From an uncultured bacterium (GTDB taxonomy: Bacteria > Patescibacteriota > Minisyncoccia > UBA6257 > 2-01-FULL-56-20), in contig OY970175.1 of NCBI GenBank assembly GCA_963707865.1, positions 758,028 through 822,027 on the forward strand: a DNA stretch of 64,000 nt, read 5' to 3'. Under the pieces are notes generated by a model. The model saw nothing but the letters and a program-made list of their open reading frames with translations. It was not told the origin of the DNA and searched no databases. A program made the translations under genes and the position numbers. Below, in pieces: positions 41,326 to 61,156 of the stretch; the stretch's first letter is position 1; each line of letters begins with the position of its first letter.

Positions 41326-41397
41326 GGGCACGTAGCTCAACGGCAGAGCAGACGTCTTATACACGTCCGGTTCCTGGTTCGAATCCAGGCGTGCCCA
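41326..41397 (+). tRNA. tRNA-Ile with anticodon UAU (gene anticodon TAT)
   Basis: Perfect 7-bp acceptor GGGCACG/CGTGCCC, D stem GCTC/GAGC, anticodon stem GACGT/ACGTC with loop CTTATAC, T-loop TTCGAAT. Confidence 0.7.
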
Positions 41398-41398
41398 C

Positions 41399-57859: not shown

Positions 57860-57866
57860 TCTTTTG

Positions 57867-57938
57867 TGCGCGCTGTAGGATTTGAACCTACGACCTACCG
57901 CGTGTAAGGCGGTCGCTCTGCCGCTGAGCTAAGCGCGC
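57867..57938 (-). tRNA. tRNA-Val (anticodon UAC)
   Basis: Acceptor GCGCGCT/AGCGCGC, anticodon loop CTTACAC, T-loop TTCAAAT. Confidence 0.8.
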
Positions 57939-58025
57939 GTTATTCCATCCTACAGGGAAGTACCAATTTTTTCAACTCTCCGAAAATACTCGGGGAGTGT
58001 GCCCTTCTTCCTAGGGCTAGAACTC

Positions 58026-58703
58026 CTACCTCGTCATTGTCCTTAGGCGCTCTCCCTGCCAATATTCATAAAATGGTCCCCACATGAATCCAGCTAAAAA
58101 CCAAAATATATACTCTTCAACAGGATAGGTTAAAAACGTGATTCCGGATAAGTGACTGAAAAGATAGGTTTCACGAGCCCAACTTGGATAGAAAAACAAT
58201 ATGCTTGAATAAAAAACTATAGACACAAAAAACATACAAATGCCAGTCAGGAACCCAGCTATTATTAGATCCCGGCGATAATAAAACATGACTGCGGCGA
58301 TGAAGATCATGGCGATGGTGCTCGCCCAGAACGAACTGAAATGGAGACCCCAGATAAGTATTGAAGTAATTTGGGCCAGCAAGAGGAGGATAGTAAATCC
58401 GCCTGGATGATGCTGATTGCTCTCCCGTTTGTATAATCTCTTGCGGAACAACTCTTCATAAATAACAGCCATTACGCCTCCGCCTGCAAAACCTACTAAG
58501 AAATCTTCTATCCCCACTCGCGTGCCGGTTATAGTCAATGGGCGCCACCAATCGTGTGTCCACCAAAAATAGCCAGTCGCCACACTCACGCCGCCGATGA
58601 GCACGCTCATGATTAGCATCTCTTTACGCAAATCTTTTCGGGAGAAAAATAAGATCAACCAAATAAAAAGGAAAACCACGCTTCCGATTAGAAATCCGTA
58701 CAT
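58026..58703 (-). CDS. Hypothetical polytopic membrane protein
   Basis: Six to seven predicted transmembrane helices; ORF only. Confidence 0.5.
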   Translation of the reverse strand: MYGFLIGSVVFLFIWLILFFSRKDLRKEMLIMSVLIGGVSVATGYFWWTHDWWRPLTITGTRVGIEDFLVGFAGGGVMAVIYEELFRKRLYKRESNQHHPGGFTILLLLAQITSILIWGLHFSSFWASTIAMIFIAAVMFYYRRDLIIAGFLTGICMFFVSIVFYSSILFFYPSWARETYLFSHLSGITFLTYPVEEYIFWFLAGFMWGPFYEYWQGERLRTMTR

Positions 58704-58782
58704 AGCTTTATTCTAACAGGATTCAATTCTCGTATGGGTCGAAAATCAAGACACCGCACAAAACGCGGCTTATAGAATGGTG

Positions 58783-58854
58783 CGCCCTCGGAGGGAATCG
58801 GACCCCCATCAAAGCCTTAGAAGAGCTCTGCTCTGTCCATTGAGCTACGAGGGC
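58783..58854 (-). tRNA. tRNA-Arg (anticodon UCU)
   Basis: Acceptor GCCCTCG/CGAGGGC, anticodon loop CTTCTAA, T-loop TCCGATT. Confidence 0.8.
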
Positions 58855-58923
58855 CCCGCGTCGCGGGGCACCGCTGAACGCATTGATTCTACAACGGAAA
58901 TAGGATAGTTTGAAGAGGCATCA

Positions 58924-58994
58924 CGGGCCGTCGTATACCGGTAGTACACCTGTTTTGGGTACAGGCAGACTGGGTTCAATTCCCAGCGGCCCGA
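58924..58994 (+). tRNA. tRNA-Pro (anticodon UGG)
   Basis: Acceptor CGGGCCG/CGGCCCG, anticodon stem CCTGT/ACAGG with loop TTTGGGT, T-loop TTCAATT. Confidence 0.8.
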
Positions 58995-59046
58995 CGTCAA
59001 GGCTTCTTTAATAATTCTTTAATGGAGTTTTTGTTATGCTGGACGC

Positions 59047-59745
59047 ATGCGAAACGACAAACAAACGGCCATTCGTCTTCGTTTAACTGGAAGAAGCTAC
59101 TCGGAAATTCGGGGATTGCTTGGCAGAATATCGAAGTCAACTCTTTCATTATGGCTAAAAGACATAGTTCTTTCTGATGCCGCAAGCAGTGCGCTCAAAA
59201 GACGGACGTGGGAAAGGTCATTGGCAGGATTGCTTAAGAGGAATAAGAAGCAAACGATTTTGGCTTTGCGCCGTAAGTCCGACATTCAAACTGAAGCGAA
59301 AAATCAAATTGGCGATATTTCAAAAGAAAAATTATTGCTTGTAGGGGCCGCGTTGTATTGGGCGGAAGGATACAAGCGGGCGAAAAGGAGAAACGGTTTG
59401 GAGGTAACCAACCATCCTGTTTCTCTCACGAATGCAGACCCCAAGCTTTTGAAAATGTTTATAAAGTTTTTGGTTGAAGTGTGCGAGGTCGCACGTGAGA
59501 GAATAAAGATCGGGGTAAGAATTTTCCAACACCTTAACGAAGAAGAAGTTTTAAATTATTGGAGTGATACTCTCCAGATCTCCAGAAAAAACTTTACGAA
59601 AACATATCTCGGCATTAGTAGGTCTAGCATGGGCAAACGGCCGTTTAATCGCTTGCCTTATGGGGTTGCACAGATTAGAATAAACAACACCAATCTGTTT
59701 CATAAGATCATGGGATGGATTGATGGCGTTAAGGAAAAAGTTTGA
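59047..59745 (+). CDS. Putative endonuclease-like protein: N-terminal helix-turn-helix plus a degenerate LAGLIDADG-like core
   Basis: HTH LTGRSYSEIRGLLGRISKSTLSLWLK, then LLLVGAALYWAEGYKRAK and a downstream F.L.....D..LL..I...L pattern. Lower GC than the flanks. Sits between tRNA-Pro and the intron-containing tRNA-Phe. Confidence 0.4.
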   Translation: MRNDKQTAIRLRLTGRSYSEIRGLLGRISKSTLSLWLKDIVLSDAASSALKRRTWERSLAGLLKRNKKQTILALRRKSDIQTEAKNQIGDISKEKLLLVGAALYWAEGYKRAKRRNGLEVTNHPVSLTNADPKLLKMFIKFLVEVCEVARERIKIGVRIFQHLNEEEVLNYWSDTLQISRKNFTKTYLGISRSSMGKRPFNRLPYGVAQIRINNTNLFHKIMGWIDGVKEKV

Positions 59746-59746
59746 A

Positions 59747-60023
59747 TGCCGCGGTAGCTCAGTGGTAGAGCGATGCCCTAAATCTTTGGGGCCTTCCGCA
59801 GTAATGCGGATTGAATAATCGGGTGAACTCGGGGGAACTCCGAAAGGACAATCCCGAACCAAGCTTCGCAGGGCCTAGGTTGCGAAGAAGGCGTAGAGAC
59901 TAGCGAGTGAGTCCCAACAATAATCTCGCACAAGCGCCCGGCTTCCTTCGGCGAGGAAGATGATATAGTCCAAATTAGCCTCGGAAGAGGCATGCGTCGG
60001 GTGTTCGATTCACCCCCGCGGCA
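59747..60023 (+). tRNA. tRNA-Phe (anticodon GAA) interrupted by a group I intron after U33 (exon 1 59747-59778, exon 2 59984-60023)
   Basis: Joined exons GCCGCGGTAGCTCAGTGGTAGAGCGATGCCCT|GAAGAGGCATGCGTCGGGTGTTCGATTCACCCCCGCGGCA fold as a canonical tRNA-Phe. The D-arm and T-loop are identical to E. coli tRNA-Phe, with A73. Confidence 0.75.
59779..59983 (+). ncRNA. Group I intron (IC3-like, 205 nt, no ORF) in the tRNA-Phe anticodon loop
   Basis: P1: exon GCCCU pairs with internal guide GGGGC (59787-59791) with a U.G at the splice site. P10: UCUUU (59782-59786) pairs with 3' exon GAAGA. P2 hairpin CCGCA-GUAA-UGCGG. Core GGCGUAGAGACUAGCGAGUGAGUCC resembles the Azoarcus tRNA-Ile intron GGUGUAGAGACUAGACGGCACCCACC. 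Terminal G before the 3' exon. Confidence 0.7.
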
Positions 60024-60073
60024 CAAAGAACAAAAAATCCGCTACTGGCGGATTTTTTTGATAAGCAACAGTC

Positions 60074-61156
60074 CTACCTCTTCACCTTCAGCGTGATCCT
60101 TCTTTCCTCGGGCTTCACGGCGTCAATGACGAACGGATACGACTGCCCGACGGCGAGCGCTTTTTTCATCTCGTCTTGTCCGCCAAACTCGGAGATGTGT
60201 ATCATGCCCTGAAGATCCCCCGCAAGCGCGACGATGGCGCCGAAGGGATTGAACTTGTACACGCGGCCCTCCACGGTGGCGCCGGGCGTGACGGCATCGC
60301 CGAGCTTCGCCCACGGATCTTCTTTGAGCGCTTTGAGGGAGAGAAATACGCGGCCTTCTTTGATGTCCACGATTTTTGCCTTTAGCGGGTCGTTCACTTT
60401 TACGAGTTCTTTTGGATTGTCTATCAACTTGTAATCCAGCTCGGAAATGTGGATCATGCCCTCTATCTGCGGATTGCCCACGAAGCGGACGAAGACGCCG
60501 AAGTCGGCGACGCCCGAGACGATGCAATCAACATCCTGCCCCACGGCGTAGGCGGCGAGGAGCTCCTTCACGTTCGCCGAAAGCACTTCGCGCTCGGAAA
60601 CGATGATCTTGTTGCTCCGCGGATTCACGTCAATGATCTTAACGGAAAGCTCCTGGCCGATAAATTTCTTCAGTTCTTCCGTGATTTTCACGCGGTCGCC
60701 GTCTGGGACTTTCGGATAGTGTTCAAGCGAGAGCTGGGAAACAGGAAGGAAGGCTCTCAGTTCTTCGGAGATTATGGCCATCAATCCGCCGGCATTCGCG
60801 CCGATGATTTTTGCCTTCACGACCTCGCCGGCTTCCGCAAGGTCTTTCGCCTGTTGCCAAAGCTTTTGTTTGCCTGCTTCGGAGAGCGAAAGTTCAATAT
60901 TACCTTCTTCGCCGTCCAGTGCGACGATTTTCGCGTGGAGCTTGCCGTCGGGATTCAGGTTGCGCAGCGCCTCCCGCGCGTTCTGAAATTCTATGCCATA
61001 GACGATGCCTGTGCCGAAACGGCCCATGTCAAAATAGGCCTTACGGGGAAGCTTCTTGATGAGCGTGACCTCCACGACCGTACCTTCCTTCGGCCAGTCG
61101 GCCGCCGAAAGCTCGGTCTTCAAGAACTGTGTGATGTTCGCGTCTGTTTGAGGCAT
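60074..61156 (-). CDS. rpsA: 30S ribosomal protein S1 (short form with four S1 domains)
   Basis: Repeated S1 domain motifs (GxV..I..FGAFV-like: DFGVFVRF, GMIHISE). Confidence 0.8.
   Translation of the reverse strand: MPQTDANITQFLKTELSAADWPKEGTVVEVTLIKKLPRKAYFDMGRFGTGIVYGIEFQNAREALRNLNPDGKLHAKIVALDGEEGNIELSLSEAGKQKLWQQAKDLAEAGEVVKAKIIGANAGGLMAIISEELRAFLPVSQLSLEHYPKVPDGDRVKITEELKKFIGQELSVKIIDVNPRSNKIIVSEREVLSANVKELLAAYAVGQDVDCIVSGVADFGVFVRFVGNPQIEGMIHISELDYKLIDNPKELVKVNDPLKAKIVDIKEGRVFLSLKALKEDPWAKLGDAVTPGATVEGRVYKFNPFGAIVALAGDLQGMIHISEFGGQDEMKKALAVGQSYPFVIDAVKPEERRITLKVKR

Follow-up and report, generated by a model that had tools for sequence, protein, structure and literature searches.

How does a tRNA-Phe(GAA) gene that is interrupted in the middle of its anticodon loop, in a genome of the Patescibacteria, still specify a tRNA, what kind of element interrupts it, and has the open reading frame (ORF) that ends immediately upstream any part in the matter? 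These questions are raised by a locus lying within a 64,000-nucleotide stretch of DNA (hereafter, the window), for which an earlier note had proposed a tRNA-Phe(GAA) split after U33 by an ORF-less, IC3-like group I intron, unusual both in its site and in its tRNA. In our reading, to which we give a probability of roughly 0.9, the locus is a Paceibacterota-type Patescibacterium's gene for tRNA-Phe(GAA), split between U33 and G34 by what its sequence indicates to be a compact, ORF-less ribozyme from a widespread lineage of introns in Patescibacteria tRNA genes. Judged by the same evidence, the intron is almost certainly functional. It is a further example of a kind catalogued before, and common in the tRNA-Phe genes of Patescibacteria, so that the intron by itself commands little interest, to which a helix found in introns lacking P9 and a linked endonuclease-like gene add moderately.

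Well-known intron sites in tRNA genes are 33/34 in tRNA-fMet, 34/35 in tRNA-Leu and 36/37 in tRNA-Arg (Nakagawa et al., 2026, mSystems, PMC13011429), the first of these types being named 'fMet.2Ug' in a study that raised the number of known types from 4 to 21 (Williams, 2020, 10.1101/2020.01.27.920355). The survey by Nakagawa et al. (2026), which covers complete genomes, catalogues a tRNA-Phe(GAA) 33/34 intron in Ca. Doudnabacteria (GCA_016699995.1; Table 1/S3) and a tRNA-Phe intron at 31/32 in Elusimicrobiota (Table S5), and reports that intron-bearing and intronless copies of one anticodon seldom coexist. Endonuclease genes were searched for inside introns only, and mobility was judged to be limited (PMC13011429). 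A keyword search of the literature for group I introns together with tRNA-Phe returned organelle and eukaryote papers only.

The split tRNA-Phe gene

The gene and its surroundings in the window comprise the following features, with the neighboring upstream ORF listed further below.

59748-59779, + strand: 5' exon of tRNA-Phe, nt 1-33 (without position 17), last base U33; from the sequence and from ARAGORN, run with introns permitted and on the joined exons; GCCGCGG UA GCUC AGUGGUA GAGC G AUGCC CU
59780-59983, + strand: group I intron, 204 nt, without ORF, omegaG at 59983; from Rfam RF00028 and the unique U-1/omegaG boundary
59984-60023, + strand: 3' exon of tRNA-Phe, nt 34-73, anticodon GAA followed by G37, CCA not encoded, discriminator A73 at 60023; from the sequence and ARAGORN; GAA GA GGCAU GCGUC GGGUG UUCGAUU CACCC CCGCGGC A
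60032-60058, no strand assigned: terminator hairpin flanked on each side by A/T runs, common to the tRNA-Phe and the convergent S1-domain genes (minus-strand scan match); on the + strand UCCGC-UACUG-GCGGA followed by U7
60074-61156, - strand: convergent S1-domain gene

The proposed split by a group I intron after U33, and the Rfam check that the earlier note had named, are both borne out: when introns are permitted, ARAGORN reports tRNA-Phe(gaa) i(33,204), while the Rfam model RF00028 (Intron_gpI) matches 59770-59993 over its full length (model 1-253 of 253) at 59.2 bits against a gathering score of 50 (E-value for the entire window 1.8e-12). The split gene escapes both ARAGORN at default settings and the Rfam tRNA model, so that similar genomes can appear to be devoid of tRNA-Phe, a point that deserves a warning to annotators. 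Group I hallmarks are present at both ends: a U59779.G59788 wobble closes P1 where the 5' splice site lies, and omegaG terminates the intron. A 7-nt anticodon loop is obtained with the U-1/omegaG boundary alone, a solution that is unique here and in at least 57 homologues; other splice sites, shifted boundaries and a 5' exon ending at U59783 were ruled out, as U59779/G59983 is the one choice that combines the 7-nt loop, the P1 wobble and omegaG. The location given earlier therefore stands, with slips of one nucleotide in the gene start (59748, not 59747) and in U33 (59779, not 59778), and the intron measures 204 nt rather than 205.

Joined in silico at GCCCU/GAAGAGGC (U59779/G59984), the exons form a 72-nt sequence that ARAGORN folds into a clean canonical cloverleaf with the anticodon loop CU-GAA-GA, the textbook tRNA-Phe that had been anticipated, and the precursor has a minimum free energy z-score of -3.46 relative to shuffles. 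The description of the intron as ORF-less is likewise upheld, its + strand containing no ORF of at least 60 aa. In the 64-kb window, ARAGORN and Rfam detect neither another tRNA-Phe nor another group I intron. The nearest loci among the matches listed come from Ca. Paceibacterota metagenome-assembled genomes (MAGs) and the source contig is ~0.9 Mb long, in line with the reduced-genome host that had been supposed.

Relatives and distribution

A scan of contigs with the pattern GTAGAGACTA-N40-70-GATGATATAGTC yielded at least 120 loci, the titles of which name mostly Patescibacteria groups, with ~20 of the matches listed bearing another or no taxon label. At least 63 further loci have the pattern inside a tRNA-Phe(GAA) gene. 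Their introns measure 202-283 nt and admit one U-1/omegaG boundary each, at 33/34, the splice sites having been set by requiring the D-arm motif and P1; among the matches listed, almost all of these loci are from Patescibacteria. ARAGORN calls split tRNAs at 30 other loci among the matches listed, namely Thr(UGU) at 12, Asn at about 8-12, Asp at 3 and a few other isoacceptors, and calls no split tRNA at the remaining ones listed; Asn 35/36 genes are often miscalled as Thr(UGU) 33/34 (PMC13011429). Given that 33/34 is the classical tRNA-fMet site, that the Phe 33/34 combination is already catalogued in Doudnabacteria and that at least 63 more loci share it, neither the site nor the tRNA can be regarded as unusual, contrary to the initial view. 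The nearest relatives among the matches listed are 93% (L119, Ca. Paceibacterota), 91% (L111, with flanking synteny of ~80%) and 85% (L079) identical.

Sampling that does not depend on the intron, by way of the neighboring S1-domain gene, yielded 80 loci from metagenomes, at 63-94% aa identity. A tRNA-Phe(GAA) lies beside the S1-domain gene in 57 of the 80, where 55 genes are intronless and two carry an intron (204 nt in L146, 258 nt in L149); in the closest S1 relative (L121, protein 94% identical) the tRNA-Phe is intronless and on the other strand. This patchiness among close relatives (2 versus 55 loci) implies repeated gain or loss of the intron. All 57 genes have G37. The idea that the intron imposes G37 through P10 was rejected, since the 55 intronless relatives have it too, and G37 is therefore a trait of the lineage rather than a by-product of P10.

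The neighboring open reading frame

59047-59745, + strand: ORF of 232 aa, N-terminal helix-turn-helix (HTH) and C-terminal LAGLIDADG-like domain, stop 2 nt before the tRNA

An endonuclease-like gene beside the tRNA-Phe intron is a previously unnoticed element of such loci, conserved next to intron-bearing tRNA-Phe genes throughout the phylum. Its product contains the motif LYWAEGYK (residues 103-110), invariant in 26 homologues, and within the stretch G-A-A-L-Y-W-A-E-G (residues 100-108) L103, Y104, W105, E107 and G108 are invariant in the same number. The motif sits at the C-terminal end of a predicted helix (93-106) and reads as the end of a LAGLIDADG-type helix, with an acidic residue followed by Gly; we hold the assignment to the LAGLIDADG fold with moderate confidence. 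Searches against Pfam, NCBIfam and PHROGs profiles recover the N-terminal HTH and no curated LAGLIDADG profile, PDB sequence profiles give no match beyond the HTH, and Foldseek against the PDB returns no significant match, with weak OmpA-like noise only. The family, for which there is next to no annotation, numbers at least 591 proteins, and the product may also act as a regulator.

The ORF keeps company with the intron. Of 46 evaluable intron-bearing loci among the matches listed, 23 have a homologue 5-130 nt (in one case 223 nt) from the tRNA-Phe, and one is found near an intronless tRNA-Phe in five of 35 loci, a sample that differs in phylogenetic breadth from the 46 intron-bearing loci. 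When sampled from the protein side, all nine homologues on long contigs adjoin a tRNA-Phe(GAA), which is intron-bearing in eight, and in five of the nine the tRNA starts -10 to +22 nt from the ORF stop. Short remnants of the C-terminal part of the ORF are found beside tRNA-Phe in L094 and L197. The ORF is a candidate for an intron-linked gene that stands free of the intron and encodes a homing endonuclease or a maturase and, with its HTH and LAGLIDADG-like parts, the best candidate to move or help it in trans; the linkage suggests homing driven in trans.

LAGLIDADG proteins are classic group I maturases, and splicing in vivo might depend on the abutting protein acting in that capacity, instead of or besides cutting DNA. 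The ORF and the tRNA are linked so tightly (2 nt in the window, -10 to +22 nt in five other genomes) that co-transcription is likely, and the window intron is without P9. Nevertheless, about half of the intron-bearing loci (23 of 46 evaluable, among the matches listed) have no such ORF nearby, its presence shows no correlation with the loss of P9, both classes of intron carrying it, and the invariant E107 of the LAGLIDADG-like motif is better suited to a nuclease than to a protein that acts as a maturase alone. Introns of the related Asn and Asp genes of Patescibacteria, moreover, self-splice in vitro free of protein, in the two genomes that the authors tested (PMC13011429); protein factors are treated in a review (PMC3984707). 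We regard protein-dependent splicing as unlikely.

Intron architecture and covariation

The elements of the intron, all on the + strand, are as follows.

59775-59792: P1, exon GCCCU 59775-59779 (nt 29-33) with guide GGGGC 59788-59792, U33.G59788 wobble; from sequence and covariation
59783-59787 with 59984-59988: P10, guide UCUUU (in the P1 loop) with exon GAAGA (nt 34-38); from covariation
59795-59810: P2 hairpin UCCGCA-GUAA-UGCGGA; compensatory changes in 6/6 pairs
59819-59825 with 59935-59941: P3, UCGGGUG with CGCCCGG; 7 pairs, 3 compensatory, 99.8% of cells paired
59829-59857: P4 (59829-59834/59852-59857) and P5 (59839-59841/59846-59848, GAAA loop); from covariation
59859-59891: P6/P6a, P6a pairing 59864-59871 with 59880-59887; 8/8 P6a pairs compensatory
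59896-59902 with 59966-59971: P7, G-AGACUA (A59897 bulged) with UAGUCC; from complementarity, presumed guanosine-binding helix
59903-59929: extra P7.1-like hairpin between P7 and P3', 27 nt, stem GCGAG/CUCGC, conserved 17-nt loop UGAGUCCCAACAAUAAU; 5/5 stem pairs covary
59942-59959: P8 hairpin CUUCC...GGAAG; covariation at positions 2, 3 and 5 (anchored pair counts)
59960-59971: J8/7 AUGAUA (59960-59965) and P7 3' strand UAGUCC (59966-59971); from the Rfam alignment
59972-59983: intron 3' tail, 12 nt, ending in omegaG

These elements were assessed in an alignment of 64 tRNA-Phe introns (the window intron and 63 among the matches listed), which were gathered with a pattern taken from the window intron and so sample close relatives of its core. 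RNAalifold recovers P1, P2, P3, P4, P5, P6 and the extra hairpin. With P7 included, 96.4% of pair cells hold standard pairs, versus 78.8% in shuffles, compensatory changes occur in 29 of 48 pairs, and the covariation score is 0.527, versus 0.177 when shuffled and 0.06-0.133 with partners slid. The structural pairing is far beyond chance, and P1, P2, P3, P4, P5, P6, P8 and P10 are backed by covariation in the 64 homologous introns; P7 is invariant in this set because the search pattern fixed it, and covariation is uninformative there. J4/5 and J5/4 are A-rich. The elements that the earlier note had named (P1, a 5-bp P10, a GUAA-capped P2 and the block GUAGAGACUAG at 59893-59903) are all found, and of the helices P3 to P9, P3 to P8 can be folded, P9 being absent.

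P1 has 4-6 bp in all 64 introns, with GC/CG and CG/AU switches that track the anticodon stem, and P10, equally general, has 3-8 bp. Facing nt 37, the P10 guide has C in 40/40 introns of G37 tRNAs and U in 23/24 of A37 tRNAs, a correspondence (63/64) that confirms independently where the splice sites lie. Pairing of the 17-nt loop of the extra hairpin (59908-59924) with the P1 guide or with P5 was considered and dropped, as no covariation was seen and the loop is constant while P1 changes between subfamilies.

By the criteria of Michel and Westhof, a P7.1/P7.2 element between P7 and P3' reportedly defines subgroup IA, and an extra pairing of this kind is present, as one element in the window intron versus the classical two and as two hairpins in 12 relatives of the 64-intron alignment. 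The short J7/3 without peripheral element that characterizes IC3 is thus replaced by a 27-nt covarying hairpin (59903-59929), and the P9, typically GNRA-capped, that would follow P7 is missing, so that there is no L9 tetraloop either. Assignment to the IC3 introns of the Azoarcus, Anabaena and cyanobacterial tRNA type draws on a similar size (~200 nt) and on P4, P6, J6/7 and P7 blocks (AAYUCGGGG, CAAUCCCGARCCAAGC, GAAGGYGUAGAGACUA) that closely resemble those of IC3 tRNA-fMet introns (PMC13011429, Table S5). It is nonetheless improbable, for P3, P3' and J8/7 match Patescibacteria Asn 35/36 introns and their Nitrospirota look-alikes typed as IA1 (Table S5), and none of the Patescibacteria tRNA introns, Phe 33/34 included, was assigned to IC (PMC13011429). 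The resemblance of the J6/7-P7 block behind the IC3-like label is therefore real, whereas the label itself runs against the hairpin, the absence of P9 and the published typing, and the intron appears to be more IA-like than IC3.

A tail:exon helix in introns without P9

59978-59991, + strand: tail:exon helix, GCCU 59978-59981 with AGGC 59988-59991 (exon nt 38-41), enclosing omegaG and the anticodon and standing in for P9; from Rfam and 35 P9-less homologues

In the window intron 12 nt separate the 3' strand of P7 from omegaG, and the Rfam model aligns its P9 to a hairpin made of this tail and the 3' exon (GCCUC-GGAA-GAGGC). A GNRA-capped P9 is present in 29 of the 64 aligned introns, the other 35, window included, being P9-less and all in G37 tRNAs. 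In 33 of these 35, exon nt 38-43 and the tail form a helix of 4-6 bp. The P9-less introns average 4.97 bp, versus 3.51 +/- 0.14 with mismatched tail and exon partners (the top of 200 controls reaching 3.94), and the last 12 nt of the P9-containing introns form 2.8 bp with the exon. The tail tracks the sequence of the anticodon stem, as in CAGCU/GGCUG, AUGCU/AGCAU, GACGC/GCGUC, UAUCCU/AGGAUG and UCGCC/GGCGA, and its changes preserve G.U pairs, so that what is maintained is the pairing rather than identity of sequence to the 5' exon. The window's helix has just 4 bp, and P10 rivals it for A38.

We infer that the tail replaces the strand of nt 29-33, which P1 withdraws from the anticodon stem, and that the surrogate stem-loop so formed offers omegaG together with nt 34-37 to the guide and the G site. 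Loss of P9 common to 35 of 64 members, together with a compensating, covarying helix, points to selection rather than decay, and makes the P9-less intron a natural minimal ribozyme design of structural interest. A decayed, inactive insertion in a tRNA-Phe pseudogene, with an intact copy elsewhere doing the work, is very improbable, since against the missing canonical P9, the intronless tRNA-Phe of close relatives and the room for a second copy in a ~0.9-Mb genome of which 64 kb were examined stand a perfect cloverleaf, the intactness of every core helix, with pairing kept across 64 species-level genomes, the tail:exon helix of the P9-less members and the rarity of duplicate isoacceptor copies in these genomes (PMC13011429).

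Proposed splicing pathway

A working intron of this architecture would be expected to splice as follows. In the precursor, P1 with its U33.G wobble would arise as exon nt 29-33 (GCCCU) left the anticodon stem for the guide GGGGC, and the P3-P8 core would fold together with the P7.1-like hairpin. Exogenous guanosine bound at P7 would then attack after U33. The UCUUU guide would pair with G34-A38 (P10) and the 3' tail with exon nt 38-41, placing omegaG59983 in the G site, whereupon the 3'-OH of U33 would attack after omegaG and the exons would be ligated to give the loop CU/GAAGA. RNase P, 3' trimming and CCA addition would presumably complete the tRNA.

A possible two-part mobile unit

Taken together, the intron and the abutting ORF may make up a mobile unit of two parts, resident in cellular (Patescibacteria) genomes, in which a hitherto unrecognised family of free-standing homing endonucleases would target tRNA-Phe and spread the intron in trans (collaborative homing), with the P9-less form presenting the 3' splice site on a surrogate anticodon stem that its tail makes with exon nt 38-43. 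We offer this tentatively, at somewhat less than even odds. Homing in trans, if true, would explain the patchiness of the intron among close relatives, and would run counter to the inference in print that a tRNA intron is all but unable to move unless it carries an endonuclease gene of its own. Should the ORF drive homing, tRNA introns in reduced genomes would be active mobile elements and not frozen relics.

Comparison with known systems

The layout of a free-standing endonuclease-like gene beside an ORF-less intron, with the two parts co-occurring across genomes and the intron patchy among close relatives, is the same as in collaborative or trans homing in phages (PMC3984707). The present case differs in that the host gene is a cellular tRNA gene and not a phage protein gene, and in that the candidate protein combines an HTH with a LAGLIDADG-like fold and has no Pfam endonuclease match.

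Among tRNA introns, the IC3 introns of Azoarcus tRNA-Ile and Anabaena tRNA-Leu differ in their sites (36/37 and 34/35, respectively), in having P9, and in being without a P7.1-like element. The IC3 introns of cyanobacterial and other tRNA-fMet(CAU) genes share the 33/34 site and have similar P4, P6 and P7, but lie in another tRNA, have P9/P9.0 with GNRA loops and lack a hairpin between P7 and P3' (Biniszkiewicz et al., 1994, via PMC13011429; Williams, 2020). The Patescibacteria introns at 35/36 of Asn(GUU) and Asp(GUC), of subgroup IA (PMC13011429), belong to the same lineage and were recovered by the same P7...J8/7 pattern, with P3, the hairpin after P7, P3' and J8/7 in common with the window intron. 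They differ in tRNA and in position (35/36 versus 33/34), and therefore in their internal guide sequences, and some of them encode HNH endonucleases internally (PMC13011429).

Closest among the known systems is the intron of Ca. Doudnabacteria (GCA_016699995.1), for which the published entry is a catalogue line without structure, splicing test or analysis of neighboring genes (PMC13011429). It comes from another class and genome, is 211 nt long versus 204 nt, and has different P2, P5 and P6 sequences. Over gene and intron it is 72% identical to the window, with the same tRNA, anticodon, G37, U33/G34 site and core blocks, and the same want of an ORF; it likewise has the hairpin between P7 and P3', with compensatory changes in its stem, and in place of P9 a tail:exon pairing, GACGC/GCGUC.

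Intron architecture and its variants

P9 is absent from 35 of the 64 tRNA-Phe introns in the alignment of homologues, and 33 of these 35 have 4-6 bp between the 3′ tail and exon nucleotides 38-43 (all counts among the matches listed). The Rfam model places this tail:exon helix at the position of P9, and we infer that it would form a surrogate anticodon stem around omegaG, the last intron base, standing in for P9. The extra hairpin between P7 and P3′ carries a 17-nt loop, UGAGUCCCAACAAUAAU, which is almost unchanging in both tRNA-Phe subfamilies and in the Asn-type relatives; because of this near-invariance, the sequence comparison suggests that the loop makes a tertiary contact, and a partner for it was sought and none found. 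The two elements lie in the window as follows.

59972-59991, region of the tail:exon helix
59908-59924, 17-nt loop of the extra hairpin

Among the matches listed, the P7...J8/7 core pattern by which intron loci were collected also occurs in nine metagenome-assembled genomes (MAGs) with titles other than Patescibacteria (L007, L014, L018, L030, L036, L059, L065, L108 and L114), whose records are labelled Gammaproteobacteria, Clostridium, Bacilli, Ignavibacteriota, Bdellovibrionales or Lyngbya. Several of the nine contain the Patescibacteria-type tRNA-Phe intron, and the labels may reflect either mis-binned contigs or genuine spread past the phylum.

Gene neighbourhood

Two candidate transcription signals accompany tRNA-Phe, the second of them probably a bidirectional terminator.

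59653-59681, promoter-like site for tRNA-Phe, within the upstream ORF
60032-60058, hairpin flanked on both sides by A/T runs, separating tRNA-Phe from the S1-domain gene convergent with it

Relative to window 57866-61156, the orientation of tRNA-Phe and the S1-domain gene varies among the loci sampled through the latter (L121-L200), with 42 co-directional and 15 convergent; the Pro/Arg pair is likewise inverted in part of these relatives, and every intron-bearing tRNA-Phe copy in the sample is convergent with the S1-domain gene.

The endonuclease-like ORF also adjoins intronless tRNA-Phe genes at five loci, in convergent arrangement at four of them. Four belong to the S1 sample (L130, L136, L151, L171), where the adjoining tRNA-Phe is a distinct sequence variant, GCCGGGCUAGCUCAUCGG...; at the fifth, L209, ORF and tRNA-Phe overlap. 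Two short C-terminal remnants (30-33 aa) look like decay of the endonuclease-like gene.

L094, 6926-7024, remnant adjoining an intron-bearing tRNA-Phe
L197, 1875-1964, remnant adjoining an intronless tRNA-Phe

tRNA genes and nucleotide 37

Default ARAGORN places six tRNAs at 40.4-59.0 kb of the window; a seventh, the split tRNA-Phe, lies at 59.7-60.0 kb. One of the six represents an uncommon bacterial means of reading AUA.

41326-41398 (+), tRNA-Ile with anticodon UAU (tat)
59987, G37 of tRNA-Phe, in the anticodon loop CUGAAGA

G37 is shared by all 57 syntenic relatives in L121-L200, intron-bearing or intronless alike. A37, the E. coli-type state of tRNA-Phe, is found in 24 of the 64 aligned intron-bearing genes (among the matches listed), whose hosts are other Patescibacteria.
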